A DNA stretch of 20,853 bases, from positions 1-20,853 of IMG/VR virus record IMGVR_UViG_2636415477_000002; one strand, written 5' to 3'. Both the position numbers and the translations under genes were made by a program. Shown piece after piece: positions 864 to 20,853 of the stretch (positions within the stretch are counted from its first letter, which is position 1; every line of letters begins with the position of its first letter). Under the pieces are notes generated by a model. It saw only the letters and a program-made list of their open reading frames with translations. It had not been told where the DNA came from and ran no database searches. Origin of the DNA: a virus (lineage: Duplodnaviria; Heunggongvirae; Uroviricota; Caudoviricetes).

Positions 864-1074
864 GCGACCTTATTATCCATGCGCGGTATTGTCGCCGTAT
901 TCCTGCATTAACAGAGACCGCAGCCCGACCGGGAGACTCCTCTGCGCGAGTGTGCGGGGATAATCAAAAACGATACACACCGGGGTTTACCGCGTTAACG
1001 GAGCGTGGCGTTGTCCCCTCATGGTCGCTCGTCCGGTGCGATGGTGGAAGAAACTGGATTTTGTTGCAACTGAT

Positions 1075-1300: not shown

Positions 1301-1310
1301 GAATTGCTGA

Positions 1311-1859
1311 ATGAATGTTAATAAAAAGAAGCTTGCTGAAATCTTTAATGTCGATATACGCACTATTGATCGCTGGCAAACTCAGGGGCTCCCTCAGATA
1401 TCTGGTGGAGGAAAAGGTGTTGAGGTCATCTTTGATTCTGCGAAGGCGATCGAATGGTATGCTCAGCGCGAAGCTGATATTGAAAATGAAAAACTCCGTA
1501 AAGAGGTCGAGGATTTGAGGGCTGCCAGCGAATCAGACCTTCAGCCCGGCACCATTGATTACGAACGTTACCGACTGACGAAGGCACAGGCAGATGCACA
1601 GGAACTGAAAAATGCCCGCGACAGTGGGCAGGTCATTGATACAGGGTTTTGCCTTTTTGCTCTGGGAAGACTGGCACAGGAGATCTCTGCCATTCTTGAC
1701 TCCATTCCATTGTCCATGCAGAGACAGTTTCCGGCACTGACGCCCGCTATGCTTGATTTCCTGAAAACCGATATAGCAAAGGCGGCAAACCGATGCGCAT
1801 CAACGGCAGAGAAGTTACCGGAGATGCTGGATGAATACCTCAGAGAAGCAGCTAAATAA
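1311..1859 (+). CDS. nu1: Terminase small subunit
   Basis: 182 aa; N-terminal winged-helix region and [41 protein letters not shown] match lambda gpNu1; sits directly downstream of cosB. Confidence 0.95.
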
Positions 1860-3759: not shown

Positions 3760-3949
3760 ACTGCAGGCGCTGCGTCAGGCGCGCCTTGATTTATTAACCG
3801 GTAAACGGGTGGTGTCTGTCCAGAAAGATGGTCGCAGAATTGAATATACGGCGGCTTCTCTGGATGAGCTTAACCGGGCGATCAATGATGCGGAGTCGGT
3901 ACTGGGGACAACCCGGCGTCGCCGTCGTCCGCTGGGAGTGAGGTTATGA
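3743..3949 (+). CDS. W: Head-tail joining protein
   Basis: 68 aa; LLTGKRVVSVQKDGRRIEYTA and the arginine-rich C-terminus match lambda gpW; GGAGGA precedes the start. Confidence 0.93.
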   Translation: MVTVAELQALRQARLDLLTGKRVVSVQKDGRRIEYTAASLDELNRAINDAESVLGTTRRRRRPLGVRL

Positions 3950-5538
3950 AACGAACGCCTGTCCTGATTGATGTGAACGGCGTTCCGCTTCGTGAGAGTC
4001 TCAGCTACAACGGGGGCGGTGCAGGATTTGGCGGGCAAATGGCTGAGTGGTTGCCACCGGCGCAGAGTGCCGATGCGGCCCTGCTACCCGCGTTGCGTCT
4101 GGGGAATGCCCGGGCAGATGATCTGGTGCGCAATAACGGAATAGCGGCTAATGCGGTGGCTCTGCATAAGGATCACATTGTCGGGCATATGTTTCTGATC
4201 AGCTACCGTCCGAACTGGCGCTGGCTGGGGATGCGGGAGACCGCAGCAAAAAGCTTTGTCGATGAGGTGGAGGCGGCCTGGTCGGAATACGCCGAAGGGA
4301 TGTTTGGCGAGATCGACGTGGAAGGAAAACGCACGTTCACGGAATTTATCCGTGAAGGTGTGGGCGTTCATGCGTTTAACGGCGAAATCTTTGTGCAGCC
4401 GGTCTGGGATACGGAAACCACGCAGTTATTCCGTACGCGTTTTAAAGCCGTGAGTCCGAAACGGGTGGACACGCCTGGACACGGTATGGGGAACCGTTTT
4501 CTGCGGGCCGGTGTGGAGGTCGATCGATATGGCCGTGCCGTCGCGTACCATATTTGTGAGGATGATTTTCCGTTCTCTGGTAGTGGACGATGGGAACGGA
4601 TCCCGCGTGAACTTCCCACCGGACGTCCGGCCATGCTGCATATTTTCGAGCCGGTGGAGGACGGGCAGACCCGTGGGGCTAATCAGTTTTACAGCGTCAT
4701 GGAACGGCTGAAGATGCTCGATTCCCTGCAGGCAACACAGCTTCAGTCGGCCATAGTGAAGGCGATGTATGCAGCGACGATTGAAAGTGAACTTGATACC
4801 GAAAAGGCCTTTGAATATATCGCCGGTGCGCCGCAGGGGCAGAAGGATAATCCGCTTATTAATATTCTGGATAAGTTCTCCACCTGGTATGACACGAATA
4901 TCGTGACGCTGGGCGGTGTCAAAATTCCGCACCTTTTCCCCGGTGATGATCTGAAACTTCAGACCGCGCAGGATTCAGACAATGGATTTTCGGCGCTTGA
5001 ACAGGCGCTGCTGCGGTATATCGCTGCCGGTCTTGGCGTTTCCTACGAACAGTTGTCCCGTGATTACTCGAAGGTCAGTTATTCAAGTGCCCGCGCATCC
5101 GCCAATGAGTCGTGGCGCTATTTTATGGGGCGGCGAAAATTTATTGCGTCCCGGCTGGCCACGCAGATGTTTTCCTGCTGGCTGGAAGAGGCACTTCTTC
5201 GGGGGATTATTCGTCCGCCACGGGCACGTTTTGATTTTTATCAGGCGCGATCAGCCTGGTCACGGGCTGAGTGGATTGGAGCCGGAAGAATGGCCATTGA
5301 CGGGCTCAAGGAGGTTCAGGAATCAGTGATGCGCATTGAGGCCGGACTGAGCACGTATGAGAAAGAGCTGGCGCTGATGGGCGAGGATTATCAGGACATT
5401 TTCCGCCAGCAGGTCAGGGAATCTGCAGAGCGGGAAAAAGCCGGACTCTCACGTCCGGTGTGGATAGCGCAGGCGTATCAGCAGCAGATAGCGGAGAGTC
5501 GCAGGCCGGAAGAGGAGACAACACCACGTGAGACGTAA
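3946..5538 (+). CDS. B: Portal protein
   Basis: 530 aa, collinear with lambda gpB (GNARADDLVRNNG, FEPVEDGQTRGAN-FYSVME, LQSAIVKAMYAATIESELDT, LLRYIAAGLGVSYEQLSR). ATGA overlap with W. Confidence 0.97.
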   Translation: MKRTPVLIDVNGVPLRESLSYNGGGAGFGGQMAEWLPPAQSADAALLPALRLGNARADDLVRNNGIAANAVALHKDHIVGHMFLISYRPNWRWLGMRETAAKSFVDEVEAAWSEYAEGMFGEIDVEGKRTFTEFIREGVGVHAFNGEIFVQPVWDTETTQLFRTRFKAVSPKRVDTPGHGMGNRFLRAGVEVDRYGRAVAYHICEDDFPFSGSGRWERIPRELPTGRPAMLHIFEPVEDGQTRGANQFYSVMERLKMLDSLQATQLQSAIVKAMYAATIESELDTEKAFEYIAGAPQGQKDNPLINILDKFSTWYDTNIVTLGGVKIPHLFPGDDLKLQTAQDSDNGFSALEQALLRYIAAGLGVSYEQLSRDYSKVSYSSARASANESWRYFMGRRKFIASRLATQMFSCWLEEALLRGIIRPPRARFDFYQARSAWSRAEWIGAGRMAIDGLKEVQESVMRIEAGLSTYEKELALMGEDYQDIFRQQVRESAEREKAGLSRPVWIAQAYQQQIAESRRPEEETTPRET

Positions 5539-7033
5539 TCTTTCACACATTATTGCAGCAGCATTCAATGAACCGCTGCTTCTGGAGCCCGCCTATGCGC
5601 GGGTTTTCTTTTGCGCGCTCGGGCGCGAGATGGGGGCAGCAAGTCTTTCGGTACCACAACAGCAGGTACAGCTTGATGCACCCGGAATGCTGGCTGAAAC
5701 GGACGAGTACATGGCCGGAGGTAAACGACCGGCCCGTGTTTACCGGGTGGTGAACGGTATTGCTGTACTGCCGGTCACAGGCACGCTGGTGCACCGGCTG
5801 GGGGGTATGCGGCCATTTTCCGGAATGACAGGCTATGACGGCATTGTCGCCTGTCTTCAGCAGGCAATGGCGGATAGCCAGGTGCGGGGTGTACTGCTGG
5901 ACATTGACAGTCCGGGCGGGCAGGCCGCCGGTGCGTTTGACTGTGCTGACATGATTTACCGCCTCCGTCAGCAGAAGCCGGTCTGGGCACTGTGCAATGA
6001 CACGGCCTGTTCTGCAGCCATGCTGCTGGCGTCGGCCTGCTCCCGACGGCTGGTTACCCAGACATCCCGTATCGGCTCCATTGGCGTGATGATGAGCCAT
6101 GTCAGCTATGCCGGTCATCTGGCGCAGGCCGGTGTGGATATCACGCTGATTTACTCAGGGGCGCACAAGGTGGATGGCAATCAGTTTGAAGCGTTGCCGG
6201 AAGAGGTTCGCCAGGACATGCAGCAGCGGATTGATGCGGCGCGCCGGATGTTTGCCGAAAAAGTGGCGATGTATACCGGTCTGTCTGTTGATGCAGTCAC
6301 GGGAACAGAGGCCGCCGTTTTTGAAGGTCAGTCCGGCATTGAGGCCGGGCTGGCGGATGAATTAATCAATGCGTCGGATGCCATCAGCGTGATGGCTGCG
6401 GCGCTGAACACACATGATACAGGAGGCACTATGCCGCAATTAACTGCAACGGAAGCTGCCGCGCAGGAGAACCAGCGAGTGATGGGGATCCTGACGTGTC
6501 AGGAAGCGAAAGGACGTGAACACCTTGCCACGATGCTGGCAGGACAACAGGGCATGAGCGTTGAACAGGCCCGGGCGATTCTGACCGCGGCAGCACCACA
6601 GCAGCTGGTGGCATCCACGCAGAGTGAAGCCGATCGCATTATGGCGTGTGAAGAAGCTAAAGGTCGTGAACAACTGGCGGCAACGCTGGCGGCGATGCCG
6701 GAGATGACGGTGGAAAAAGCCCGCCCGATCCTGGCGGCTTCACCGCAGGCGGATGCCGGACCCTCACTCCGTGATCAGATTATGGCTCTGGATGAGGCAA
6801 AAGGGGCTGAGGCGCAGGCTGAAAAACTGGCGGCGTTTCCCGGAATGACGGTGGAGGCTGCCCGCGACATTCTGTCCTCATCGCCGGATAAAGCAGAACC
6901 GGTTTCTGCATCCACAACCGCCATGTTTGAACGCATCATGGCGAACCATTCACCGGCAGCCGTGCAGGGTGGCGTGTCACAGACGTCGGCAGACGGTGAT
7001 GCGGACGTGAAAATGCTCATGGCCATGCCATGA
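5528..7033 (+). CDS. C: Head maturation protease (S49/ClpP-like), with the scaffold region in its C-terminal part
   Basis: N-terminal two-thirds matches lambda gpC (AFNEPLLLEPAYARVFFCAL, NGIAVLPV-GTL, SRRLVTQTSRIGSIGVMM). The most upstream in-frame start is GTG 5528. About 60 aa longer than lambda gpC because of a repeated C-terminal motif. Confidence 0.93.
   Translation: MRRNLSHIIAAAFNEPLLLEPAYARVFFCALGREMGAASLSVPQQQVQLDAPGMLAETDEYMAGGKRPARVYRVVNGIAVLPVTGTLVHRLGGMRPFSGMTGYDGIVACLQQAMADSQVRGVLLDIDSPGGQAAGAFDCADMIYRLRQQKPVWALCNDTACSAAMLLASACSRRLVTQTSRIGSIGVMMSHVSYAGHLAQAGVDITLIYSGAHKVDGNQFEALPEEVRQDMQQRIDAARRMFAEKVAMYTGLSVDAVTGTEAAVFEGQSGIEAGLADELINASDAISVMAAALNTHDTGGTMPQLTATEAAAQENQRVMGILTCQEAKGREHLATMLAGQQGMSVEQARAILTAAAPQQLVASTQSEADRIMACEEAKGREQLAATLAAMPEMTVEKARPILAASPQADAGPSLRDQIMALDEAKGAEAQAEKLAAFPGMTVEAARDILSSSPDKAEPVSASTTAMFERIMANHSPAAVQGGVSQTSADGDADVKMLMAMP
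6431..7033 (+). CDS. nu3: Scaffolding protein, in-frame internal initiation within C
   Basis: AGGAGG at 6421-6426 followed by an in-frame ATG at 6431; lambda Nu3 is likewise nested in the 3' part of C; downstream motif MGIL-C-EA-GRE matches lambda Nu3. The exact start is inferred. Confidence 0.6.
   Translation: MPQLTATEAAAQENQRVMGILTCQEAKGREHLATMLAGQQGMSVEQARAILTAAAPQQLVASTQSEADRIMACEEAKGREQLAATLAAMPEMTVEKARPILAASPQADAGPSLRDQIMALDEAKGAEAQAEKLAAFPGMTVEAARDILSSSPDKAEPVSASTTAMFERIMANHSPAAVQGGVSQTSADGDADVKMLMAMP
6470..6950 (+). repeat. Three degenerate tandem copies (about 140-160 bp each) of the scaffold motif R-IM--EAKG-E-LA--LA--P-MTVE-AR-IL---P, plus a fourth partial start
   Basis: Protein-level repeats RVMGILTCQEAKGREHLATMLAGQQGMSVEQARAILTAAAPQ / RIMACEEAKGREQLAATLAAMPEMTVEKARPILAASPQ / QIMALDEAKGAEAQAEKLAAFPGMTVEAARDILSSSPD, then RIMANH. 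Confidence 0.6.
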
Positions 7034-7069
7034 AGTCAGTGCTGACCATCAATATGAGGTTTTTACAAT

Positions 7070-7417
7070 ATGGTAACGAAAACCATCACTGAACAACGTG
7101 CAGAAGTACGTATTTTTGCCGGTAATGATCCGGCTCATACCGCCACAGGCAGCAGCGGGATTTCTCAGGCAACACCGGCACTGACGCCCCTGATGCTGGA
7201 TGAAGCCAGCGGGAAACTGGTGGTCTGGGACGGACAGAAAGCCGGTAGTGCGGCTGGCATACTGGTACTGCCGCTTGAAGGCACAGAGACGGTGCTGACG
7301 TATTACAAGTCGGGGACCTTTGCGACGGAGGCAATCCGCTGGCCTGAAAGTGTGGATGAACACAAAAAGGCCAACGCCTTTGTCGGCACAGCCCTGAGTC
7401 ACGCGGCGCTGCCGTAA
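7070..7417 (+). CDS. D: Head decoration protein
   Basis: 115 aa; DPAHTAT, TPLMLD, KLVVWDG, YKSGTF match lambda gpD. Confidence 0.93.
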   Translation: MVTKTITEQRAEVRIFAGNDPAHTATGSSGISQATPALTPLMLDEASGKLVVWDGQKAGSAAGILVLPLEGTETVLTYYKSGTFATEAIRWPESVDEHKKANAFVGTALSHAALP

Positions 7418-7474
7418 CACGTTATCAGGCCACCGCGTTGGCCTGACTGATTTCTGAATGAAAGGAACTGATTT

Positions 7475-8503
7475 ATGGGATTGTTTACGACCCGCCAGTT
7501 ACTCGGTTATACCGAACAAAAAGTGAAATTTCGTGCGCTGTTTCTGGAACTGTTTTTCCGCCGTACGGTGAATTTCCACACCGAAGAGGTGATGCTGGAC
7601 AAAATTACCGGAAAAACGCCGGTGGCAGCCTATGTCTCCCCGGTTGTTGAAGGAAAAGTGCTGCGTCATCGTGGTGGTGAAACCCGTGTGTTACGTCCGG
7701 GCTACGTCAAGCCCAAACACGAATTTAATTACCAGCAGGCGGTGGAGCGCCTTCCCGGTGAAGATCCGGCGCAGCTGAACGACCCGACCTACCGTCGTCT
7801 GCGTATCATCACCGATAACCTCAAACAGGAAGAGCACGCCATTGTCCAGGTGGAAGAAATGCAGGCGGTGAATGCCGTGCTGTATGGCAAATACACCATG
7901 GAAGGAGACCAGTTCGAGAAAATTGAGGTTGATTTTGGCAGATCGACAAAGAATAACATCATACAGGGTAGCGGTAAGGAGTGGTCAAAACAGGACCGTG
8001 ACACGTTCGACCCGACATATGATATCGACCTTTTCTGTGATCAGGCCAGCGGTCTTGTGAATATTGCCATCATGGACGGTACCGTCTGGCGTCTGCTGAA
8101 TGGCTTTAAGCTGTTCCGCGAAAAACTGGATACCCGTCGCGGCTCAAATTCACAACTCGAAACGGCAGTGAAAGACCTGGGGTCGGTGGTGTCTTTCAAG
8201 GGGTATTACGGTGATCTGGCCATTGTGGTGGCGAAAACGTCTTATGTGGCAGAGGACGGTACCGAAAAACGTTATCTGCCGGAGGGCACGCTGGTCCTGG
8301 GAAATACGGCTGCTGAGGGCATCCGTTGCTATGGTGCCATTCAGGATGCGCAGGCGTTGTCCGAAGGTGTGGTGGCCTCTTCCCGTTATCCGAAACACTG
8401 GATGACCGTGGGCGATCCGGCCCGTGAATTCACCATGACGCAGTCCGCTCCGCTGATGGTGCTGCCGGATCCGGATGAGTTTGTGGTGGTACAGGTGAAA
8501 TAA
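7475..8503 (+). CDS. E: Major capsid protein
   Basis: 342 aa, collinear with lambda gpE (PGYVKPKHE, VEEMQAV-AVL-GKYTM, KLDTRRGSNS-LETAVKDLG, GDPAREFTMTQSAPLM-L-DPDEFV). Confidence 0.97.
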   Translation: MGLFTTRQLLGYTEQKVKFRALFLELFFRRTVNFHTEEVMLDKITGKTPVAAYVSPVVEGKVLRHRGGETRVLRPGYVKPKHEFNYQQAVERLPGEDPAQLNDPTYRRLRIITDNLKQEEHAIVQVEEMQAVNAVLYGKYTMEGDQFEKIEVDFGRSTKNNIIQGSGKEWSKQDRDTFDPTYDIDLFCDQASGLVNIAIMDGTVWRLLNGFKLFREKLDTRRGSNSQLETAVKDLGSVVSFKGYYGDLAIVVAKTSYVAEDGTEKRYLPEGTLVLGNTAAEGIRCYGAIQDAQALSEGVVASSRYPKHWMTVGDPAREFTMTQSAPLMVLPDPDEFVVVQVK

Positions 8504-8511
8504 TCCGTGAG

Positions 8512-8540
8512 CGGGGGCGAAATGCCCCCGTGTCTTTTTT
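8512..8540 (+). terminator. Intrinsic-terminator-like hairpin plus T-run immediately downstream of E
   Basis: CGGGGGC (8512-8518), loop GAAAT, GCCCCCG (8524-8530), then TTTTTT (8535-8540). Confidence 0.55.
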
Positions 8541-8555
8541 CACAGGGGGCTGGAT

Positions 8556-8924
8556 ATGGCAACAAAAGAAGAAAATCAGAAACGTCTTCGTGAACTGGCT
8601 GGCCTGCTGGGGCGCGAGGCGGATATGTCGGGGAGTGCAGCGGATATCGCACAGCGTGTGGCAGAGTGGGAAGAGGAGGTTTGCGCATCGGAAAATGAAA
8701 TCGCAGATGTTGATGATACCGTTTATGAGCAGGCATACAGGAACACCGGTGAGGATGCTTTCGGTATTCTGGAACGTATCATGCTTCTGAAGTGTTTTTA
8801 CCTGTGCGGTGTTGACGATGAAACAGGTGAGCCTGTTGAGCATGTTGATGCTGGCAGAGTAATTCTGATGCCCCCCTCAGTGGCAAAAGACATGGTCAAG
8901 AGTGGAATGGCCGTTTATGCGTGA
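8556..8924 (+). CDS. FI: DNA-packaging / head assembly protein, FI-like
   Basis: 122 aa acidic protein at the FI position between E and FII; weaker similarity to lambda gpFI than neighbouring genes, so the call is mainly positional. Confidence 0.7.
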   Translation: MATKEENQKRLRELAGLLGREADMSGSAADIAQRVAEWEEEVCASENEIADVDDTVYEQAYRNTGEDAFGILERIMLLKCFYLCGVDDETGEPVEHVDAGRVILMPPSVAKDMVKSGMAVYA

Positions 8925-9270
8925 TTTTCAGAATGCCTTCGATGCTGCCCTCGCCGGGGTGGACAGCACGATTGTTGAAGTGATGGGACTTTGTGCGCAG
9001 TTCACCTCGGGGGCACAGCGTGGTGGCGAAGTTCAGGGGGTTTTTGACGATCCGGAGTCGCTGGGTTTTGCCGGTGGCGGGGTCCGTATTGAAGGAAGCA
9101 GCCCGTCATTATTTGTGCGGACGGATACGGTTCGGGCTGTGCGGCGTGGTGACACGCTGACCATTAACGGCGAGATGTTCTGGGTGGATCGTGTTTCTCC
9201 GGATGACGGGGGAAGCTGTTATCTCTGGCTCAACCGTGGGCAACCACCCGCTGTTAACCGGCGACGATAA
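8917..9270 (+). CDS. FII: Head-tail connector / head completion protein
   Basis: Matches lambda gpFII (GVFDDPE, GVR-EGSSPSLFVRTD-VR, RRGDTLTI, FWVDRVSPDDGGSC-LWL-RG-PPAVNRRR). ATG 8917 chosen over the upstream GTG 8902 by alignment to the lambda N-terminus. Confidence 0.92.
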   Translation: MRDFQNAFDAALAGVDSTIVEVMGLCAQFTSGAQRGGEVQGVFDDPESLGFAGGGVRIEGSSPSLFVRTDTVRAVRRGDTLTINGEMFWVDRVSPDDGGSCYLWLNRGQPPAVNRRR

Positions 9271-9285
9271 ACGCAGGGTGAAATT

Positions 9286-9819
9286 ATGGCGATAAAAGGG
9301 CTTGATCAGGCGATTGATAATCTGAGCCGGGTTCGTAAAAACGCCATTCCGGCGGCTTCAGCAATGACGATTAACCGCGTGGCCACAACGGCGATTAATC
9401 AGTCTTCGTCACAGGTTGCCCGGGAAACCAGGGTGAGACGGAAACTGGTAAAGGAACGGTCCAGACTGAAACGGGCGACGGTCAGAAATCCGAATGCCAG
9501 AATTATCGTTAACCGCGGTGATCTCCCTGTGATTAAGCTGGGGATCAGGATGCTGGGGCGTCGCCCGAACAGCATACTTAAAGCCGGTCAGCATCGGTAT
9601 CAGCGGGCATTTATTCAGCGATTAAAAAATGGTCGCTGGCATGTCATGCAGCGTGTGGCCGGGAAAAACCGTTACCCCATTGATGTGGTGAAAATCCCGA
9701 TGGCGGCCCCACTGAAACAGGCATTTGATGAGAATGTTGACCGTATCCGGCGTGAACGCCTGCCTAAAGAACTGGCATACGCGCTGAAACAACAACTGAG
9801 GATTGCAATAAAACGATGA
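9286..9819 (+). CDS. Z: Tail completion protein
   Basis: 177 aa; MAIKGL-QA--NLSR, SQVARET-VRRKLVKER-RLKRATV, RGDLPVIKLG and NGRWHVMQRVAGKNRYPIDVVKIPMA match lambda gpZ. Confidence 0.95.
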   Translation: MAIKGLDQAIDNLSRVRKNAIPAASAMTINRVATTAINQSSSQVARETRVRRKLVKERSRLKRATVRNPNARIIVNRGDLPVIKLGIRMLGRRPNSILKAGQHRYQRAFIQRLKNGRWHVMQRVAGKNRYPIDVVKIPMAAPLKQAFDENVDRIRRERLPKELAYALKQQLRIAIKR

Positions 9820-10211
9820 AACACACTGACATTCGTGCCGCAGTGCTGGATGCACTCGAGCAGCATGAACACGGGGCGACGCTGTTTGATGGTCGCCCCG
9901 TTGTTTTTGACGAAGAGGATTTTCCTGCGATCGCGGTTTATCTGACGGATGCAGAGTATACCGGTGAAGAGCTGGATGCAGATACCTGGCGGGCCACACT
10001 GCATATTGAGGTGTTTTTACCGGCACAGGTACCTGATTCGGAGCTCGATCAGTGGATGGAAAGCCGGATTTATCCGGCGATGACTGCGATCCCGGCACTG
10101 GCAGGACTGATTACCACGATGGTTACGCAGGGCTATGAGTATCATCGTGATGACGATATGGCGTTATGGAGCTCTGCGGATCTGACTTATTCCATTACAT
10201 ACGAGATGTGA
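9816..10211 (+). CDS. U: Tail terminator protein
   Basis: 131 aa, near-collinear with lambda gpU ([63 protein letters not shown]). ATGA overlap with Z. Confidence 0.96.
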
Positions 10212-10218
10212 GGACGAT

Positions 10219-10965
10219 ATGGCAACACCAAATCCCCTGGAGCCGGTAAAAGGTGCCGGTACCACTCTGTGGGTTTACAACGGCAAGGGTGATGCTTATG
10301 CAAACCCGTTGTCAGACGATGACTGGCAGCGACTGGCTAAGGTGAAGGATCTGACGCCGGGCGAGATGACGGCAGAATCCTACGATGATAACTACCTGGA
10401 TGATGAAGACGCGGACTGGACCTCGACCGGGCAGGGACAGAAATCTGCAGGTGATACCAGTTTTACGCTGGCCTGGAAACCGGGTGAGGAAGGCCAGAAA
10501 GGGCTTATCGCATGGTTTGAAAGCGGGGATGTCAGGGCCTATAAAATCCGGTTCCCGAATGGTACGGTGGATGTGTTCAGTGGCTGGGTCAGCAGTATCG
10601 GTAAGGCCGTGACGGCGAAGGAAGTGATCACCAGAACGGTGAAAGTTACCAATGTGGGACGCCCGTCGATGGCGGAAAATCTCACTAAAATTACGCCGGT
10701 TTCCGGTGTGACCATTAAACCGGAAACCCTGACCCTAGAAAAAGGGAAGGCAGGCACACTTACTGTGGCTGTGTTGCCGGATAATGCGTCTGATCCTTCA
10801 TTAAGGGTGTCGACCGTGCATCGTGCGGTGGCCACAGCCACGTTGAAGGAGAACACAGTGACGGTAAACGCACTTGAGAAAGGAACAACGTCGGTCGTGG
10901 TCATGAGTGATAACGGTAATTTTGTCGCTCTGGCGACAGTAACCGTTAATGTCCCTGCCGCGTAA
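10219..10965 (+). CDS. V: Major tail tube protein with a C-terminal Ig-like domain
   Basis: N-terminal 160 aa match lambda gpV ([111 protein letters not shown]); C-terminal 90 aa is a divergent beta-rich Ig-like domain. Confidence 0.96.
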
Positions 10966-10986
10966 CGGGTGTTTAGGAGAACACGC

Positions 10987-11418
10987 ATGTTTCTTAAAAC
11001 AGAACAATTTGAATATAACGGTGTGTCTGTCACGCTTTCGGAGCTGTCTGCGCTGCAGCGTATCGAGCATCTTGCCCTGCTGAAACGGCGGGCAGAAGAG
11101 GCTGAAGCCAGCGGCAACCTGCAGGTGAGTGTGGAAGATCTTGTCAGAACCGGCGCGTTTCTGGTGGCGATGTCCCTGTGGCATAACCATCCGGAGAAAG
11201 TGCAGCTGCTGTCAATGAATGAGGCCGTGATGCAGATCGAACAGGATGTGCTGACGACCTGGCCGGCTGATGCCATTGCCCGGGCGGAAGAGGTGGTGTT
11301 ACGTCTGTCCGGGATGAGCGGGGCTGTTCATGCGAATACTGACAGCACCGAAGTGGCGAAAAATAACACGCTGACTGATGATGATTTTTCTGCGGGAAAG
11401 TCTTCGACGGCGAGCTGA
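10987..11418 (+). CDS. G: Tail assembly chaperone G (zero-frame product)
   Basis: Matches lambda gpG (MFLKTE-FE-NGV-VTLSELSALQRIEHLAL-KR, VAMSLWHNHP-K, SMNEAV-QIEQ-VLTTWP). ATG 10987 with AGGAGA 7 nt upstream; the ORF-track start 10969 is an upstream GTG. Confidence 0.93.
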   Translation: MFLKTEQFEYNGVSVTLSELSALQRIEHLALLKRRAEEAEASGNLQVSVEDLVRTGAFLVAMSLWHNHPEKVQLLSMNEAVMQIEQDVLTTWPADAIARAEEVVLRLSGMSGAVHANTDSTEVAKNNTLTDDDFSAGKSSTAS

Positions 11419-11858
11419 ACTTTGCCCTCAGACTGGCGCGTGAGATGGGAAGACCCGACTGGCGCGCCATGCTTGCCGGGATGACATCCACCGAATATGC
11501 CGACTGGCACCGTTTTTACCGCACGCATTATTTTCAGGATACCCAGCTGGATATGCATTTTTCCGGGCTGACGTACGCTGTACTCAGCCTGTTTTTTTGC
11601 GATCCGGATATGCATCCCTCTGATTTCAGTCTGCTTGTCCCCCGGCATGAGGAAGAGCAGGTGGAGAGGCCGGATGAGGACAAAATGCTGATGCAGAAAG
11701 CGGCAGGACTTGCCGGAGGCGTCCGGTTCGGTGGGGACGGAGGGCGCGATATTTTATCGTCTGCGGATGTGGCGGATGTCATGGTGGATGATGCCGCATT
11801 AATGATGGCTTCAGCGGGGATTCCGGGAGGTGTGAGATATGTCCCAGCCGGTTGGTGA
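10987..11858 (+). CDS. T: Tail assembly chaperone G-T fusion made by a programmed -1 ribosomal frameshift at 11394-11400
   Basis: ORF 11445-11858 is in the -1 frame relative to G and is open back to the slippery site; post-shift translation VFDGELNFALRLAREMGRPDWRAMLAGMTSTEYADWHRFY matches the lambda gpGT junction and T sequence. Confidence 0.88.
11394..11400 (+). promoter_or_regulatory. Slippery heptamer G GGA AAG for the G/T -1 programmed frameshift
   Basis: GGGAAAG in the X XXY YYZ register relative to the G frame (codons GCG GGA AAG), 18 nt before the G stop, as in lambda. Confidence 0.85.
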
Positions 11859-14412
11859 TCTTGTTATTGACCTGAGTCTGGATGCGGCCCGTTTCGATGA
11901 GCAGATGAGCCGGGTAAGGCGTCATTTTTCAGGACTGGATACCGACGCCAGAAAAACCGCCGGTGCCGTTGAGCAGAGTCTGAACCGTCAGGCGCTGGCC
12001 GCACAAAAAGCCGGGATTTCCGTCGGGCAGTATAAAGCAGCCATGCGTACCCTGCCCGCACAGTTTACGGATATCGCCACGCAGCTTGCCGGTGGTCAGA
12101 ATCCCTGGCTCATCCTGCTGCAACAGGGCGGTCAGGTGAAGGACTCCTTCGGCGGGATGATCCCCATGTTCAGGGGGCTTGCCGGTGCGATCAGCCTGCC
12201 GATGGTCGGGGTCACCTCGCTGGCGGTGGCGACAGGTGCGCTGGCGTACGCCTGGTACCAGGGGGATTCCACGCTTTCAGAATTTAATAAAACGCTGGTC
12301 CTTTCCGGCAATCAGGCCGGACTGACTGCCGATCGTATGCTGACGCTCTCCAGAGCCGGGCAGGCGGCAGGGCTGACGTTTAACCAGGCGAGAGAGTCAC
12401 TGGCAGCCCTGGTGAATGCCGGTGTGCGTGGTGGTGAACAGTTTGATGCCATTAACCAGAGTGTCGCGCGTTTTGCGTCTGCATCCGGTGTTGAAGTGGA
12501 CAAGGTTGCAGAGGCTTTCGGAAAACTGACCACCGACCCGACGTCGGGACTGATGGCGATGGCGCGCCAGTTCCGTAACGTGACGGCAGAGCAGATTGCG
12601 TATGTTGCACAACTGCAGCGTTCCGGAGACGAGGCCGGGGCCTTACAGGCGGCGAACGATATCGCCACGAAAGGCTTTGATGAGCAGACCCGTCGCCTGA
12701 AAGAAAACATGGGAACACTGGAGACCTGGGCGGATAAAACAGGGAAGGCATTCAAATCGATGTGGGATGCCATTCTGGATATCGGTCGTCCGGAATCCTC
12801 AGCGGATATGCTCGCCAGTGCGCAGAAGGCATTTGATGAGGCGGATAAAAAATGGCAGTGGTACCAGAGCCGGAGCCAGCGCCGCGGTAAAACCTCCTCT
12901 TTCCGGGCCAACCTTCAGGGCGCATGGGATGACCGGGAAAATGCCCGTCTGGGTCTGGCAGCGGCAACGCTGCAGTCGGATATGGAAAAAGCCGGTGAAC
13001 TGGCGGCAAGGGACAGGGCTGAGCGTGAGTCGTCACAGCTGAAGTATACCGGAGAGGCGCAGAAGGCGTATGAGCGCCTGCTGACGCCACTGGAGAAATA
13101 TACCGCCCGGCAGGAAGAGCTGAATAAGGCCCTGAAAGACGGGAAAATCCTGCAGGCGGATTACAACACGCTGATGGCGTCGGCAAAAAAGGATTATGAG
13201 TCGACGCAGAAAAAGCCGTCCGGTGTGAAGGTGTCTGCCGGTGAGCGCCAGGAAGACCGGGCGCATGCAGCCATGCTGGCGCTTGAAACCGAGCTCAGGA
13301 CGCTGGAAAAACACAGCGGTGTGAATGAGAAAATCAGCCAGCAGCGCCGGGATTTATGGAAAGCGGAAAATCAGTATGTGGTCCTGAAAGAGGCCGCCAC
13401 GAAACGGCAGTTATCTGAGCAGGAAAAATCCCTGCTGGCCCATGAGAAAGAGACGCTGGAGTACAAACGCCAGCTGGCTGAGCTGGGCGACAAGGTTGAA
13501 CACCAGAAGCGGCTGAATGAGCTGGCACAGCAGGCGGCGCGGTTTGAACAGCAGCAGAGCGCGAAGCAGGCGGCAATCAGCGCAAAAGCCCGCGGCCTCA
13601 CCGACCGTCAGGCGCAGCGGGAGTCGGAAGAGCAGCGCCTTCGTGACGTGTACGGTGATAATCCGGATGCGCTGGCGAAGGCCACATCTGCACTGAAGAA
13701 CACCTGGTCTGCGGAGGAGCAGCTTCGTGGAAGCTGGATGGCGGGTCTGAAGTCCGGCTGGGGCGAGTGGGCGGAAAGTGCGACGGACAGTTTTTCGCAG
13801 GTTAAAAGCGCGGCCACGCAGACCTTTGACGGTATTGCACAGAATATGGCAGCGATGCTGACCGGCAGCGAACAGAACTGGCGTGGTTTCACCCGTTCCG
13901 TGCTCTCCATGCTGACAGAGATTTTTCTGAAGCAGGCGATGGTGGGGATTGTCGGGAGTATCGGCAGCGCCATTGGTGGTGCTTTCGGTGGTGGCGCATC
14001 CGCTTCCACGGGGACGGCCATTCAGGCTGCGGCGGCGAACTTCCATTTCGCGACCGGGGGATTTACGGGAACCGGTGGCAAATATGAGCCAGCGGGGATT
14101 GTCCACCGCGGGGAGTTTGTCTTCACGAAGGAGGCAACCAGCCGGATTGGTGTCGGGAACCTGTACCGCCTGATGCGGGGCTATGCGGAAGGGGGGTATG
14201 TGGGTGCTGCCGGAAGTCCGGCGCAGATGCGGCGGGCCGAAGGCATTAATTTTAATCAGAACAATCACGTGGTGATTCAGAACGACGGTACGAATGGTCT
14301 GCCAGGTCCACAGATGATGAAAGCGGTGTATGAGATGGCCCGTAAAGGTGCGCAGGATGAGCTCCGGCTGCAGTTGCGTGATGGCGGTCTGTTATCGGGG
14401 AGCGGGCGATGA
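11839..14412 (+). CDS. H: Tail tape measure protein
   Basis: 857 aa, collinear with lambda gpH along its full length (PVGDLV-DLSLDAARFDEQM-RVRRHFSG, QKAGISVGQYKAAMR-LPAQFTD, FHFATGGFTGTGGKYEPAGIVHRGEFVFTKEATSRIGVGNLYRLMRGYA). Start overlaps the end of T. Confidence 0.97.
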   Translation: MSQPVGDLVIDLSLDAARFDEQMSRVRRHFSGLDTDARKTAGAVEQSLNRQALAAQKAGISVGQYKAAMRTLPAQFTDIATQLAGGQNPWLILLQQGGQVKDSFGGMIPMFRGLAGAISLPMVGVTSLAVATGALAYAWYQGDSTLSEFNKTLVLSGNQAGLTADRMLTLSRAGQAAGLTFNQARESLAALVNAGVRGGEQFDAINQSVARFASASGVEVDKVAEAFGKLTTDPTSGLMAMARQFRNVTAEQIAYVAQLQRSGDEAGALQAANDIATKGFDEQTRRLKENMGTLETWADKTGKAFKSMWDAILDIGRPESSADMLASAQKAFDEADKKWQWYQSRSQRRGKTSSFRANLQGAWDDRENARLGLAAATLQSDMEKAGELAARDRAERESSQLKYTGEAQKAYERLLTPLEKYTARQEELNKALKDGKILQADYNTLMASAKKDYESTQKKPSGVKVSAGERQEDRAHAAMLALETELRTLEKHSGVNEKISQQRRDLWKAENQYVVLKEAATKRQLSEQEKSLLAHEKETLEYKRQLAELGDKVEHQKRLNELAQQAARFEQQQSAKQAAISAKARGLTDRQAQRESEEQRLRDVYGDNPDALAKATSALKNTWSAEEQLRGSWMAGLKSGWGEWAESATDSFSQVKSAATQTFDGIAQNMAAMLTGSEQNWRGFTRSVLSMLTEIFLKQAMVGIVGSIGSAIGGAFGGGASASTGTAIQAAAANFHFATGGFTGTGGKYEPAGIVHRGEFVFTKEATSRIGVGNLYRLMRGYAEGGYVGAAGSPAQMRRAEGINFNQNNHVVIQNDGTNGLPGPQMMKAVYEMARKGAQDELRLQLRDGGLLSGSGR

Positions 14413-14738
14413 AAACATTTCGCTGGAAAGTGAAGCCGGATATGGAGGTGAACTCGCAGCCATCGGTGCGTGAAGTGCGTTTTGGTGACGGGTACTCACA
14501 GCGTATGGCGGCAGGGCTGAATGCTGACCTGAAAACATACCGGGTGATGCTTTCCGTGACCCGGGAGGAGGCCCGTCATCTGGAAGCGTTCCTGGCAGAG
14601 CACGGTGGCTGGAAGGCATTTTTGTGGAAGCCACCCTATGCATACCGGCAGATAAAGGTGACCTGTGCCGGGTGGTCTGCGCGGGTCGGGATGTTGCGCG
14701 TTGAGTTCAGCGCGGAGTTTAAGCAGGTGGTGAACTGA
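14409..14738 (+). CDS. M: Minor tail protein M
   Basis: 109 aa; MKTFRWKVKP, VRFGDGYSQR, HGGWK-FLW-PPY, RQIKVTCA-WS-RV-MLRVEFSAEF-QVVN match lambda gpM. ATGA overlap with H. Confidence 0.96.
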   Translation: MKTFRWKVKPDMEVNSQPSVREVRFGDGYSQRMAAGLNADLKTYRVMLSVTREEARHLEAFLAEHGGWKAFLWKPPYAYRQIKVTCAGWSARVGMLRVEFSAEFKQVVN

Positions 14739-15436
14739 TGCAGGATATTCACGAAGAAAGTCTGAACGAGTCGGTTAAATCAGAGCAGTCACCGCGGGTG
14801 GTGCTCTGGGAAATCGACCTGACGGTACAGGGCGGTGAGCGGTATTTTTTCTGCAATGAGCTGAATGAAAAAGGGGAGCCGGTCACCTGGCAGGGGCGGC
14901 AATATCAGGCGTACCCGATTGAGGGCAGCGGCTTTGAGATGAACGGGAAGGGCAGCAGTGCCAGACCGTTGCTGACGGTGTCCAATCTGTTTGGTCTTGT
15001 CACCGGAATGGCGGAGGATTTGCAGAGCCTGGTGGGGGCCACGGTGGTCCGCCGCCGGGTGTATGCCCGTTTTCTGGATGCGGTGAATTTCGTTGCGGGC
15101 AATCCGGAGGCGGACCCGGAGCAGGAGCTGAGTGACCGCTGGGTGGTGGAGCAGATGTCGGAGCTGACAGCCATGACGGCCTCGTTTGTGCTGGCGACAC
15201 CGACGGAGACGGACGGGGCGCTGTTTCCCGGTCGCATCATGCTGGCGAACACCTGTATGTGGGATTACCGGGGAGATGAATGCGGGTATAACGGTCCTGC
15301 GGTGGCGGATGAGTTCGACAACCCCACCACGGATATCCGTAAGGACAGATGCAGCAAGTGCATGCGCGGGTGTGAACTGCGCAGGAATGTCGGCAATTTT
15401 GGCGGTTTCCTTTCCATTAATAAACTTTCGCAGTAA
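14738..15436 (+). CDS. L: Minor tail protein L
   Basis: 232 aa; VVLWEIDLT, GGERYFFCNE-NEKGEPVTWQGRQYQ, VVRR-VYARFLDAVNFV, FPGRIMLANTC-W-YRGDECGY-GPAVADE and C-terminal NVGNFGGFLSINKLSQ match lambda gpL. Confidence 0.96.
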   Translation: MQDIHEESLNESVKSEQSPRVVLWEIDLTVQGGERYFFCNELNEKGEPVTWQGRQYQAYPIEGSGFEMNGKGSSARPLLTVSNLFGLVTGMAEDLQSLVGATVVRRRVYARFLDAVNFVAGNPEADPEQELSDRWVVEQMSELTAMTASFVLATPTETDGALFPGRIMLANTCMWDYRGDECGYNGPAVADEFDNPTTDIRKDRCSKCMRGCELRRNVGNFGGFLSINKLSQ

Positions 15437-15446
15437 ATCCCGGTTT

Positions 15447-16190
15447 ATGACACAGACTGAATCAGCGATTCTGGCGCATGCCCGGCGGTGTGCGCCTGCG
15501 GAGTCGTGCGGCTTCGTGATAAGCACGCCGGAGGGGGAGCGGTATATCCCTTGTGTGAATATTTCCGCAGAGCCGGAGGCGTATTTTCGTATCGCACCGG
15601 AAGACTGGCTGCGGGCAGAGATGCAGGGGGAGATTGTGGCACTGGTCCACAGTCATCCCGGTGGTCTGCCCTGGCTGAGCGAGGCTGACCGGCGGCTGCA
15701 GATAAAAAGCGCACTGCCCTGGTGGCTGGTCAGCCGGGGTGACATTCACAAATTCCGCTGCGTTCCGCACCTGACCGGACGGCGCTTTGCGCACGGGGTG
15801 ACGGACTGTTACACCCTGTTCCGGGATGCATACCATCTGGCAGGCATTGATATGCCGGATTTTCACCGTGAGGATGACTGGTGGTGCAACGGTCAGAATC
15901 TCTATCTGGATAATCTGGAGGCCACAGGGCTGTATCAGGTGCCGTTGTCATCAGCACAACCGGGCGATGTGCTGCTGTGCTGTTTTGGTTCATCGGTGCC
16001 GAATCATGCCGCCATTTACTGTGGTGATGGCGAGCTGCTGCACCATATTCCTGAACAACTGAGCAAACGAGAGAGGTATACCGACAAATGGCAGCGACGC
16101 ACACACTCCCTCTGGCGTCACCGGGCATGGCGCGCATCTGCCTTTACGGGGATTTACAACGATTTGGCCGCCGCATCGACCTTCGTGTGA
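15447..16190 (+). CDS. K: Tail tip assembly protein K (MPN/JAB plus NlpC/P60-like)
   Basis: Very high similarity to lambda gpK (MTQTESAILAHARRCAPAESCGFV, HSHPGG, GVTDCYTLFRDAYHLAGI-MPDFHREDDWW). ATG 15447 follows the L stop; the ORF-track start 15186 is an upstream artefactual extension overlapping L. Confidence 0.95.
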   Translation: MTQTESAILAHARRCAPAESCGFVISTPEGERYIPCVNISAEPEAYFRIAPEDWLRAEMQGEIVALVHSHPGGLPWLSEADRRLQIKSALPWWLVSRGDIHKFRCVPHLTGRRFAHGVTDCYTLFRDAYHLAGIDMPDFHREDDWWCNGQNLYLDNLEATGLYQVPLSSAQPGDVLLCCFGSSVPNHAAIYCGDGELLHHIPEQLSKRERYTDKWQRRTHSLWRHRAWRASAFTGIYNDLAAASTFV

Positions 16191-16759
16191 AAACGGGGGC
16201 TGAAGCCATCCGGGCGCTGGCCACACAGCTCCCGGCGTTTCGTCAGAAACTGAGCGACGGCTGGTATCAGGTACGGATTGCCGGGCGGGACGTCAGCACG
16301 TCCGGATTGACGGCGCAGTTACATGAGGTTCTGCCTGACGGCGCTGTGATTCATATTGTTCCCAGAGTCGCCGGGGCCAAGTCAGGGGGCGTATTCCAGA
16401 TTGTTCTGGGGGCTACCGCCATTGCCGGATCATTCTTTACTGCCGGAGCCACCCTTGCAGCATGGGGGGCAGCCATTGGGGCCGGTGGTATGACCGGTAT
16501 CCTGTTTTCTCTCGGTGCCAGTATGGTACTTGGTGGTGTGGCGCAGATGCTGGCACCGAAAGCTAGAACTCCCCGTACACAGACAACGGATAACGGTAAG
16601 CAGAACACCTATTTCTCCTCACTGGATAACATGGTTGCCCAGGGCAATGTTCTGCCTGTTCTGTACGGTGAAATGCGCGTGGGGTCGCGGGTGGCTTCTC
16701 AGGAGATCAGCACGGCAGACGAGGGGGACGGTGGTCAGGTTGTGGTGATTGGTCGTTGA
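16088..16759 (+). CDS. I: Tail tip assembly protein I
   Basis: 223 aa, essentially collinear and near-identical to lambda gpI as I recall it; overlaps the 3' end of K by about 100 nt as in lambda. Confidence 0.96.
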   Translation: MAATHTLPLASPGMARICLYGDLQRFGRRIDLRVKTGAEAIRALATQLPAFRQKLSDGWYQVRIAGRDVSTSGLTAQLHEVLPDGAVIHIVPRVAGAKSGGVFQIVLGATAIAGSFFTAGATLAAWGAAIGAGGMTGILFSLGASMVLGGVAQMLAPKARTPRTQTTDNGKQNTYFSSLDNMVAQGNVLPVLYGEMRVGSRVASQEISTADEGDGGQVVVIGR

Positions 16760-16777
16760 TGAAAAACGTTTTATGTG

Positions 16778-16805
16778 AAACCGCCTCAGGGCGGTTTTGT
16801 CGTTT
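16778..16805 (+). terminator. Hairpin plus T-run between I and J (possible attenuator)
   Basis: AAACCGCC / loop TCAG / GGCGGTTT followed by TGTCGTTT. Confidence 0.4.
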
Positions 16806-16819
16806 CTGGAGCGTGAGGA

Positions 16820-19800
16820 ATGGGTAAAGGCAGCAGTAAGGGGCATACCCCGCGCGAAGCGAAGGACAACCTGAAATCATCCCAGATGCTGAGCGTGATA
16901 GACGCCATCAGTGAAGGGCCGATTGAAGGTCCGGTGGACGGATTAAAAAGTGTGCTGCTGAACAGTACGCCAGTGCTGGACAGTGAGGGGAATACCAATA
17001 TCTCCGGTGTCACGGTGGTTTTCCGGGCAGGTGAGCAGGAGCAGACACCGCCGGAGGGATTTGAATCCTCCGGCTCCGAGACGGTGCTGGGTACGGAAGT
17101 GAAGTACGACACGCCGATTACCCGGACCATCACGTCTGCAAACATCGACCGTCTGCGCTTTACCTTCGGTGTGCAGGCACTGGTGGAAACCACCTCAAAG
17201 GGGGACCGGAATCCGTCGGAAGTCCGCCTGCTGGTTCAGATACAGCGTAACGGTGGCTGGGTGACGGAAAAAGACATCACCATTAAAGGCAAAACCACCT
17301 CACAGTATCTGGCCTCGGTGGTGGTGGGTAACCTGCCGCCGCGCCCGTTCAATATCCGGATGCGCAGGATGACGCCGGACAGCACCACAGACCAGCTGCA
17401 GAACAAAACGCTCTGGTCGTCATACACCGAAATCATCGATGTGAAACAGTGCTACCCGAACACGGCACTGGTCGGCGTACAGGTGGATTCGGAGCAGTTC
17501 GGCAGCCAGCAGGTGAGCCGTAATTATCATCTGCGCGGGCGTATTCTGCAGGTGCCGTCGAACTATAACCCGCAGACGCGGCAATACAGCGGTATCTGGG
17601 ACGGAACGTTTAAGCCAGCATACAGCAATAACATGGCCTGGTGTCTGTGGGATATGCTGACCCATCCACGCTACGGCATGGGGAAACGTCTTGGTGCGGC
17701 GGATGTGGACAAATGGGCGCTGTATGTCATCGGCCAGTACTGCGACCAGTCAGTGCCGGACGGCTTTGGCGGCACGGAGCCGCGCATCACCTGTAATGCG
17801 TACCTGACCACACAGCGCAAGGCGTGGGATGTGCTCAGTGATTTCTGCTCGGCGATGCGCTGTATGCCGGTATGGAACGGGCAGACGCTGACGTTCGTGC
17901 AGGACCGACCGTCGGATAAGGTGTGGACCTATAACCGCAGTAATGTGGTGATGCCGGATGATGGCGCGCCGTTCCGCTACAGTTTCAGCGCCCTGAAAGA
18001 CCGCCATAATGCCGTTGAGGTGAACTGGATTGACCCGAACAACGGCTGGGAGACGGCGACAGAGCTTGTGGAGGATACGCAGGCCATTGCCCGTTACGGT
18101 CGTAACGTCACGAAGATGGATGCTTTTGGCTGTACCAGCCGGGGGCAGGCACACCGCGCCGGGCTGTGGCTGATTAAAACAGAACTGCTGGAAACGCAGA
18201 CCGTGGACTTCTGCGTGGGCGCAGAAGGGCTTCGCCATGTACCGGGCGATGTCATTGAAATCTGTGATGATGACTATGCCGGTATCAGCATCGGCGGGCG
18301 CGTGCTGGCGGTAAACAGCCAGACCCGGACGCTGACGCTCGACCGTGAAATCACGCTGCCATCCTCCGGTACCACGCTGATAAGCCTGGTTGACGGAAGT
18401 GGCAATCCGATCAGCGTGGAGGTTCAGTCCGTCACCGACGGCGTGAAGGTGAAAGTGAGCCGTGTTCCTGACGGTGTTGCTGAATACAGCGTGTGGGGGC
18501 TGAAGCTGCCGACGCTGCGCCAGCGCCTGTTCCGCTGCGTGAGTATCCGTGAGAACGACGACGGCACGTATGCCATCACCGCCGTGCAGCATGTACCGGA
18601 AAAAGAGGCCATCGTGGATAACGGGGCGTACTTTGACGGCGACCAGAGCGGCACGGTGAATGGTGTCACGCCGCCAGCGGTGCAGCACCTGACCGCCGAA
18701 GTCACCGCAGACAGCGGGGAATATCAGGTGCTGGCGCGCTGGGACACGCCGAAGGTGGTGAAGGGCGTGAGCTTCCTGCTCCGTCTGACCGTAACAGCGG
18801 ATGACGGCAGTGAGCGGCTGGTCAGCACGGCCCGGACGACGGAAACCACATACCGCTTCAGGCAACTGGCGCTGGGGAACTACAGGCTGACAGTCCGGGC
18901 GGTAAATGCGTGGGGGCAGCAGGGCGATCCGGCGTCGGTATCGTTCCGGATTGCCGCACCGGCAGCACCGTCGAGGATTGAGCTGACGCCGGGCTATTTT
19001 CAGATAACCGCCACGCCGCATCTTGCCGTTTATGACCCGACGGTACAGTTTGAGTTCTGGTTCTCGGAAAAGCGGATTACCGATATCAGGCAGGTTGAAA
19101 CCACAGCCCGCTATCTTGGTACGGCGCTGTACTGGATAGCCGCCAGTATCAATATCAAACCGGGCCATGATTATTACTTTTATATCCGCAGTGTGAACAC
19201 CGTTGGCAAATCGGCATTCGTGGAGGCCGTCGGTCGGGCGAGCGATGATGCGGAAGGTTACCTGGATTTTTTCAAAGGCAAGATAACCGAATCCCATCTC
19301 GGCAAGGAGCTGCTGGAAAAAGTCGAGCTGACGGAGGATAACGCCAGCAGACTGGAGGAGTTTTCGAAAGAGTGGAAGGACGCCAACGATAAGTGGAATG
19401 CCATGTGGGGCGTCAAAATTGAGCAGACCAAAGACGGCAAACATTATGTCGCGGGTATTGGCCTCAGCATGGAGGACACGGAGGAAGGCAAACTGAGTCA
19501 GTTTCTGGTTGCCGCTAACCGTATCGCATTTATTGACCCGGCAAACGGGAATGAAACGCCGATGTTTGTGGCGCAGGGCAATCAGATATTCATGAACGAC
19601 GTGTTCCTGAAGCGCCTGACGGCCCCCACCATTACCAGTGGTGGCAGTCCTCCGGTATTTTCCCTGACATCAGACGGAAAGCTGACCGCTAAAAATGCGG
19701 ATATCAGTGGCAGTGTGAATGCGAACGCCGGGACGCTCAACAATGTCACGGTAAATGAAAACTGTACGATTAAGGGCATGCTGGAGGCGACTCAGGTCAG

Positions 19801-20233
19801 AGGTGACTTCGTTAAAGCTGTATCCAAATCATTTCCGAAACAGGCTGGTACGTGGGGTAACACGGAAACACCAAACGGGACGGTTACAGTCACCATCAGC
19901 GATGATCATAACTTTGACCGTCAAATCATTATTCCGCCCATTATCTTTAACGGAATAGCGTATAGCGATCCGGGAAGTGGTAATAACCCGGGAGGTACAA
20001 GATACACGGGTTATGGTTTTGAAGTTCGCAAAAACGGTGTATTAATCGCATCCAGAGAAACTAAAGGGGCCATTCCCGGTAGCTACAGTGCGGTTATTGA
20101 TATGCCGAGTGGCAGGGGAAGCGTCACTCTGGAGTTTAAGGTTTTCCATAAAGGCAATCAGTGGGCAGGTAATATCACCGACTGTACGGTGATTGTGACC
20201 AAAAAAGCCGCTTCCGGCATCAGTATTCGTTGA
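16820..20233 (+). CDS. J: Tail tip / host-specificity protein J (central tail fibre)
   Basis: 1137 aa; the first roughly 985 residues are near-identical to lambda gpJ as I recall it; the last roughly 150 residues diverge. GAGGAA precedes the start. Confidence 0.97.
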
Positions 20234-20253
20234 AATTGTTATAACCCATATAA

Positions 20254-20278
20254 GGGCACCAGAAATGGTGCCTTTTTT
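20254..20278 (+). terminator. Rho-independent terminator downstream of J
   Basis: GGGCACC / loop AGAAAT / GGTGCC followed by TTTTTT. Confidence 0.65.
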
Positions 20279-20302
20279 ATTGCAGAAAAGCGAGAGGTAA
20301 TT

Positions 20303-20853
20303 ATGCGTAAACTTTATGCCGCCATTTTGTCCGCAGCCATCTGTCTGGCCGTATCCGGTGCGCCTGCATGGGCGTCTGAGCAGCAGGCCACGCTGAGTGC
20401 GGGGTATCTTCATGCCCTGACGAACACTACCGGTAGTGATGATCTGAACGGGATTAACGTGAAATACCGTTATGAATTTACGGACACGCTGGGGCTGATT
20501 ACGTCATTCAGTTATGCCAATGCTGAAGGTGAGCAAAAAACGCACTACAACGATACCCGCTGGCATGAGGATTCTGTGCGTAACCGCTGGTTCAGCGTGA
20601 TGGCGGGGCCATCTGTGCGCGTGAATGAATGGTTCAGCGCTTATGCGCTGGCCGGAGTGTCGTATGCCCGGGTGTCGTCTTTTGCCGGTGATTATGTGAC
20701 CCTCACGTCAGATGAGGGTAAAAAGCAGGAGCACCTGACCCGTTCGGACAGCGGACGCCGCAGCCATACCGCACTGACATACAGTGCAGGCGTGCAGATT
20801 AACCCGACAGAAAATATCGTGGTCGACCTGGCTTATGAAGCCTCAGGACGCGG
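20303..20853 (+). CDS. lom: Lom outer-membrane protein (Ail/Lom/PagC family beta-barrel), 3' end beyond the window
   Basis: N-terminal signal peptide MRKLYAAILSAAICLAVSGAPAWA; LSAGYLHA, NGINVKYRYEFTDTLGL-TSFSYA, WHEDSVRNRWFSVMAGPSVRVNEWFSAYA match lambda Lom. Partial. Confidence 0.93.
   Translation, partial: MRKLYAAILSAAICLAVSGAPAWASEQQATLSAGYLHALTNTTGSDDLNGINVKYRYEFTDTLGLITSFSYANAEGEQKTHYNDTRWHEDSVRNRWFSVMAGPSVRVNEWFSAYALAGVSYARVSSFAGDYVTLTSDEGKKQEHLTRSDSGRRSHTALTYSAGVQINPTENIVVDLAYEASGR

Follow-up and report, generated by a model that had tools for sequence, protein, structure and literature searches.

Gene J and its surroundings

The window, that is, the whole stretch of 20,853 nucleotides analysed here, starts in a lysis region, with an Rz-like spanin at positions 148 to 642 (E = 3.6e-75). 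Coordinate 1 (cos) of lambda and phage 434 aligns at about position 1123, upstream of nu1 (1311 to 1859). The location of Rz upstream of nu1, with cos at about 1123, indicates that the window follows a prophage or circular gene order and not that of the virion. The head and proximal tail genes (1123 to 12800) are about 65 to 80% identical to those of lambda, 434, and phage Perceval and 97% identical to those of PhiR5_1. The phage has a lambda-like gene order but, judged by these identities, is not a close relative of lambda outside the cassette of K, I, and J described below.

Gene J, encoding the tip attachment protein or central tail fibre, was identified from the list of open reading frames and their translations at 16820 to 20233 on the forward strand, with 1137 amino acids plus stop. 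In the order of open reading frames, it lies 3′ of the tail-tip genes L, K, and I and 5′ of lom, an arrangement collinear with that of lambda, 434, Perceval, and PhiR5_1. The product matches six J-specific Pfam domains, all above their curated cut-offs, in the order FNIII-A_GpJ, Phage-tail_3, Ig_J, Ig_J_second, Phage_Tail_Tip, and Ig_GpJ_C. The whole domain series of a lambdoid tip attachment protein J is thus present, beginning with the hub domains at the N terminus and ending with the Ig-like receptor-binding domain (RBD) at the C terminus, and over its full length the protein is 89% identical to J of lambda.

Two parts of J are distinguished here. The body (16820 to 19770, forward strand), comprising the hub domains, the FNIII domains, a helical shaft, and a beta-prism fibre, is near-identical to those of lambda and 434. 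It is followed at 19771 to 20233 on the same strand by a receptor-binding (specificity) region of the 434 type (residues ~985 to 1137), a putative OmpC binder, which was delimited by the breakpoint with lambda and by its identity to 434. The Ig-like C-terminal RBD proper (Pfam PF12421, Ig_GpJ_C) covers residues 1001 to 1136 (19820 to 20227, forward strand) and scores 90.9 bits (cut-off 26.2; E = 9.4e-26), with profile positions 1 to 134 of 135 matched. Among sequences in the Protein Data Bank (PDB), the last 177 residues of J match the gpJ 713 construct of A8 (9WCA; E = 7.5e-43) and the gpJ713 construct of lambda (8XCJ; E = 1.4e-33). An AlphaFold2 prediction of the last 198 residues, made without an alignment, had a mean pLDDT of 47, too low for a usable model. 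An open reading frame of 564 amino acids runs antisense inside J (17750 to 19444, reverse strand); the GC-rich codon pattern of that gene probably accounts for it. Small open reading frames overlapping the J tip and lom (19582 to 19779, reverse; 19755 to 19958, forward; 20042 to 20413, reverse) were treated as mechanical, being inside or antisense to these two genes.

The spacer between J and lom contains an intrinsic terminator, found by a terminator scan on the forward strand at 20252 to 20285, with a 10-bp stem and a 4-nt loop (20252 to 20275) followed by a T run. The stretch from 20234 to 20293 is identical to phage 434 at 60 of 60 positions and to lambda at 24 of 60, and 434 has an annotated terminator at the matching place. 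Gene lom, encoding an outer-membrane protein of the Ail/Lom family (Pfam Ail_Lom, E = 9.9e-113), occupies 20303 to 20853 on the forward strand and is cut by the end of the window. It is 434-like in its 5′ part and only ~33 to 75% identical to lambda lom per 60-nt block; further into the gene, identity to 434 drops to 50 to 60% per 60 nt, and identity to PhiR5_1 stays at 96 to 100%. Phage 434 and lambda become alike again only at the 3′ end of lom; the J tip and most of lom thus vary as a single block when these two phages are compared. No promoter-like site was found in 19600 to 20853, and a scan of the whole window with Rfam returned no match.

The boundary with lambda J and the 434-type tip

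An earlier note on this DNA, made from the letters, had described a J that is near-identical to lambda for about 985 residues and divergent thereafter. Alignment with lambda J (NC_001416, 15505 to 18903) bears this out. DNA identity per 90-nt window is 85 to 100% up to position 19789 and 38 to 61% beyond it. A maximum chi-square scan against lambda places the best breakpoint at nucleotide 19771, at about codon 985, with a chi-square of 1009 compared with a maximum of 21.9 over 200 permutations, and the mismatch rate rises from 3.8% on the left of this position to 51% on the right. In the protein, 958 of residues 1 to 985 (97.3%) are identical to lambda J, whereas for residues 986 to 1137 this holds for 57 of 158 aligned columns (36%). 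The boundary is therefore sharp, and uniform divergence along J was not seen. The end of the gene had also been said to look AT-richer, and the GC content indeed falls from 57.5% in nucleotides 1 to 2955 of J to 47.7% in the last 459 nucleotides; the RBD of lambda itself has a GC content of 55.6%. The note had placed the divergent segment at 19780 to 20233. Its left edge lies within 10 nt of the computed breakpoint, but its right edge does not hold, because the non-lambda block runs past the stop codon of J into the terminator and lom.

A translated search of the J tip against 50,697 phage records separated its relatives into two classes, with 74 records at 90% identity or more and 169 records below 60%; lambda stands at 36%. 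The close class includes mEp460 and lambda h434 imm21 (OM418627), which has been sequenced and descends from the classical host-range hybrid (PMC9119081). Over the 152 residues compared (J codons 986 to 1137), the tip is identical to those of phage 434 (OL657226) and lambda h434 imm21 at 145 positions (95.4%), without gaps and with 92.3% nucleotide identity. The tips of A8 (44%), PhiR5_1 (about 42%; this tip resembles the 1A2 chimera), and lambda (37.5%, with 17 gap columns) are far more distant. The region thus has the high identity and the indel pattern of the 434 and lambda h434 RBDs. It does not show the lambda-like receptor loops (around residues 1012 and 1107) or the near-identity to lambda residues 986 to 1132 that would mark a LamB-binding RBD of the lambda type; it is 36 to 37.5% identical to that domain, with indels near all four hot spots known in it. 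The earlier note took the last ~150 residues to be a replaced receptor-binding region, and they can now be described more precisely as another allele of the J receptor-binding domain, a homologue of the lambda domain and not an unrelated fold.

Comparison with 434 gave a dN of 0.025 and a dS of 0.30. The resulting dN/dS of about 0.08 is indicative of purifying selection and hence of conserved function. Seven substitutions and 92.3% nucleotide identity, with a dS of 0.30, imply that the allele in the window is a sister of the 434 allele and not the same allele. The relationship extends upstream of the tip. Codons 1 to 960 of J are 97.1% identical in nucleotides to both 434 and lambda h434 imm21, and the stretch from 19070 to 19726 matches 434, not lambda, being identical to it except for two bases. 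J of lambda h434 imm21 is that of lambda as far as about position 18890 of the window and that of 434 from there on. At two residues (N1050D and W1115R) the RBD of lambda h434 imm21 departs from that of the sequenced 434, without any synonymous difference; both changes could have arisen in the laboratory as host-range changes or could reflect differences between stocks.

Exchange history and spread of the allele

The tip did not travel alone in its latest move. Mismatch positions against phage Perceval (OV696612) delimit a tract without mismatch at 15889 to 20341 on the forward strand, with the last left mismatch at 15888 and the first right mismatch at 20341. This tract contains the 3′ part of K, gene I, all of J at 100% identity, the terminator, and the first bases of lom. 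In the flanks (880 to 16644 and 20195 to 20850), identity to PhiR5_1 is about 97%, but the J of that phage carries another tip and reaches only about 76% identity. A Perceval-identical tract inside a PhiR5_1-like backbone implies that the latest exchange moved a 4.45-kb K′-I-J cassette and not the RBD alone. This exchange looks recent, with apparent crossovers inside K and at the J/lom junction. By the same comparisons, the junction at 19771 is an older boundary between lambda-type and 434-type alleles that would have been inherited inside the cassette.

A study whose phages included mEp460, cdtI, and Ayreon described the J specificity region (residues 960 to 1132) as a module that recombines independently and located hot spots for indels at 1012, 1048/49, 1077/78, and 1107 (Maddamsetti et al. 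2018, PMC6646904). The same disagreement between the histories of RBD and J body is found here. Phage Stx2c_PV98-693 carries RBD DNA that is 100% identical to that of the window on a J body that is only 50 to 91% identical per 100 nt upstream of about 18580, and in the window itself identity to lambda is ~97% for the J body and 36% for the RBD. The recombinational swap proposed in the earlier note is the best explanation of the sharp breakpoint, the 10-point drop in GC content, and the identical RBD DNA on the divergent J body of Stx2c_PV98-693; an origin of the tip by recombination is thus well supported by sequence comparison.

The allele is widespread. Among the matches listed, RBD DNA with 100% identity occurs in 29 phage records, including O157 Stx1a/Stx2c phages, Perceval, and IdasGreatGrand, and phages cdtI and Ayreon have a nucleotide identity of 99.3% in this region. 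The RBD DNA has matches in 2111 of 5426 complete E. coli genomes (about 39%), and 722 records match at 99% or more. Many E. coli genomes contain several copies, up to 7 per genome.

Receptor specificity and comparison with known systems

Substitution of 434 J into lambda gives OmpC binding in place of LamB binding, and OmpC is the receptor of both 434 and lambda h434 (PMC3509688, PMC11101478). The RBD trimer of lambda reaches with four distal loops into the LamB trimer; the RBDs spread as a result, and this movement is relayed up the fibre and opens the tail tip (PMC11101478). By homology to the h434 allele, the receptor of the J encoded in the window is most likely OmpC. The expectation of the earlier note that a receptor other than LamB is used is therefore likely to be right, given the 95.4% identity to the 434 tip without indels. 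Since J upstream of the tip is 97% identical to lambda, trimeric docking and tail opening like those of lambda are expected. A J body that is 97% lambda, joined to a tip that is 95% 434 and under purifying selection, makes the lambda mechanism with OmpC as the receptor the best-supported reading.

According to this mechanism, the tip of the central tail fibre would be formed by three copies of the Ig-like domain, as in lambda. The distal loops of these domains would dock into a trimeric outer-membrane porin, and binding to the porin would trigger the rearrangement that opens the tail tip. With loops of the 434 kind, OmpC and not LamB would most likely be bound. The difference between lambda and 434 stems from the specificity region of J, which lambdoid phages exchange as a module, and this module reached the phage of the window inside the larger, Perceval-identical K′-I-J cassette, within a virion gene set like that of PhiR5_1. 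Breakpoint position, kinship of the tip with 434, domain family, purifying selection, allele spread, and cassette limits are results of the sequence comparisons; OmpC as the receptor and the way of docking are inferred. Overall, it is highly probable that the 3′ end of J is the phage-434 (h434) allele, with OmpC rather than LamB as the most likely receptor, and that it arrived in the K′-I-J cassette.

The distance between the tip and lambda could also have arisen without recombination, if rapid diversifying selection on the receptor-binding loops had changed the C terminus in place, starting from a lambda-like ancestor. In favour of this, the two domains are homologues with 36 to 37% identity that belong to one Pfam family, and natural phages show diversifying selection in the specificity region (PMC6646904). 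However, framework positions and synonymous sites diverge too, not only the loops, the nucleotide identity being 38 to 61%, and the base composition falls by 10 points at the same place. The departure from lambda also extends over the non-coding terminator and lom, the part of the J body just before the tip is identical to 434, and one phage has the RBD DNA at 100% identity together with a J body that differs by 10 to 50% per 100 nt. Moreover, J-body and RBD phylogenies are not congruent across lambdoid phages (PMC6646904). Divergence in place is thus very improbable. Still less credible is the idea that J is a decaying remnant in a defective prophage, which would make its receptor specificity irrelevant. 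A gene order of the prophage or circular type, in which Rz precedes nu1, and the several RBD copies (up to 7) in many E. coli genomes would suit such a remnant, but J is open at full length with all six domains, the virion module from nu1 to lom is complete as intact open reading frames, and J is 100% identical to that of Perceval, which was deposited as a complete phage genome.

A more serious alternative keeps the 434-family tip and proposes that its specificity has been shifted or widened by the seven substitutions, toward certain OmpC variants (e.g., those of O157 or B2 strains as opposed to K-12) or toward another porin such as OmpF or LamB. These substitutions are S1004A, Q1008K, A1009V, N1019D, S1049D, R1099G, and W1115R (7 of 152 residues). 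Residues 1008, 1009, and 1049 are no more than 5 residues away from two of the four indel hot spots, and residue 1115 lies inside a gap-bearing stretch that is aligned with lambda 1100 to 1112 and adjoins the 1107 hot spot. Few substitutions suffice for lambda and phi21 to gain a porin receptor (PMC6646904; bioRxiv 10.1101/2023.04.13.536812). The OmpC-binding tips A8 and 1A2 accept strongly different OmpC variants, with 1A2 delivering poorly to K-12 OmpC (PMC11338833), and the exact allele of the window occurs in O157 Stx1a/Stx2c phages and in prophages of LF82 and NC101. Against such a shift stand the dN/dS of 0.08 without indels relative to 434, the record of E. coli K-12 as host for Ayreon (99.3% identical in the RBD) together with infection of K-12 by 434, and the clustering of the substitutions, of which 4 of 7 fall within 16 residues (P = 0.075, not significant). 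Because few substitutions can add porin receptors, a shifted preference among OmpC variants is possible and a shifted receptor is less likely; as a whole, this reading is unlikely. A related proposal, speculative and only slightly less doubtful, is that the seven substitutions tune the allele to the OmpC of pathogenic lineages (O157:H7 and the B2 AIEC strains LF82 and NC101) and not of K-12, so that two sub-alleles would partition hosts by OmpC polymorphism. If this were true, the tuning would bear on which strains can gain Stx1a/Stx2c phages.

The searchable literature yielded no adsorption or genetic data for the exact allele of the window, and no receptor assignment was found in the literature on its carriers (Perceval, Ayreon, mEp460, the PhiR series, and NC-SV of NC101). 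Phage phi330, an OmpC-using siphophage of EHEC, was rejected as a carrier, as its J is different and shorter, and a large receptor-prediction preprint was set aside as a source, since it concerns GpJ of the Drexlerviridae type and not lambdoid tips. The Eligo chimeras A8 and 1A2 (Nature 2024) were likewise rejected as carriers; the machine-read and noisy text of the supplement contains no DNA string specific to the window, and two sequences printed in it have, in the same noisy text, ends unlike the allele of the window. The C-terminal residues of PhiR5_1 J closely match the end of the translated sequence that stands just before the heading "GpJ A8" in that supplement (noisy text). This sequence is presumably the OmpC-binding chimera 1A2, and PhiR5_1, the nearest relative of the backbone, may by this resemblance carry another OmpC-binding tip.

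The window thus holds what is already known in kind: allele, module, and type of mosaic have all been described before, and the modularity of the J region is published. The principle of J swapping and the 434 allele family are textbook lambdoid genetics, and the importance of the present case beyond annotation is small. Its practical use is that this J can be labelled as 434-type and probably OmpC-specific instead of LamB-specific, which is useful for host-range prediction. The tip is common to Stx1a- and Stx2c-converting phages of O157:H7 and to AIEC prophages, and the label is relevant there.

Compared with the RBD of lambda (PDB 8XCJ/8XCK), a LamB binder, the tip belongs to the same Ig-like fold family (PF12421), sits at the same site at the end of the fibre, and follows a J that is 97% identical upstream. 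It differs in its identity of 36 to 37% and in indels near the hot spots at lambda 1012, 1048/49, 1077/78, and 1107, and another receptor is expected. J of 434 and h434 is likewise 1137 amino acids long and shares the tip without indels, an identical downstream terminator, and the J body at 19070 to 19726; 434 differs by seven RBD substitutions, by a dS of 0.30, and by a lom that diverges in its 3′ two-thirds. Perceval, a prophage of the AIEC strain E. coli LF82, differs in lom and in its head and tail genes upstream of 15.9 kb, which are only 62 to 90% identical. Named with it in the group of related tips are the Stx1a/Stx2c phages of E. coli O157:H7, phage cdtI, Ayreon, and ev099. Lambda has been retargeted to OmpC by joining the natural prophage J tips A8 and 1A2 to its own J at residue 964 (PMC11338833). 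These two chimeras (A8 is PDB 9WCA/9WCB) have the same modular junction as J of the window, and A8 is the best sequence match to its tip in the PDB, but with RBD identities of 44% for A8 and about 42% for 1A2 (the latter figure taken from the 1A2-like tip of PhiR5_1), neither chimera is the allele of the window.
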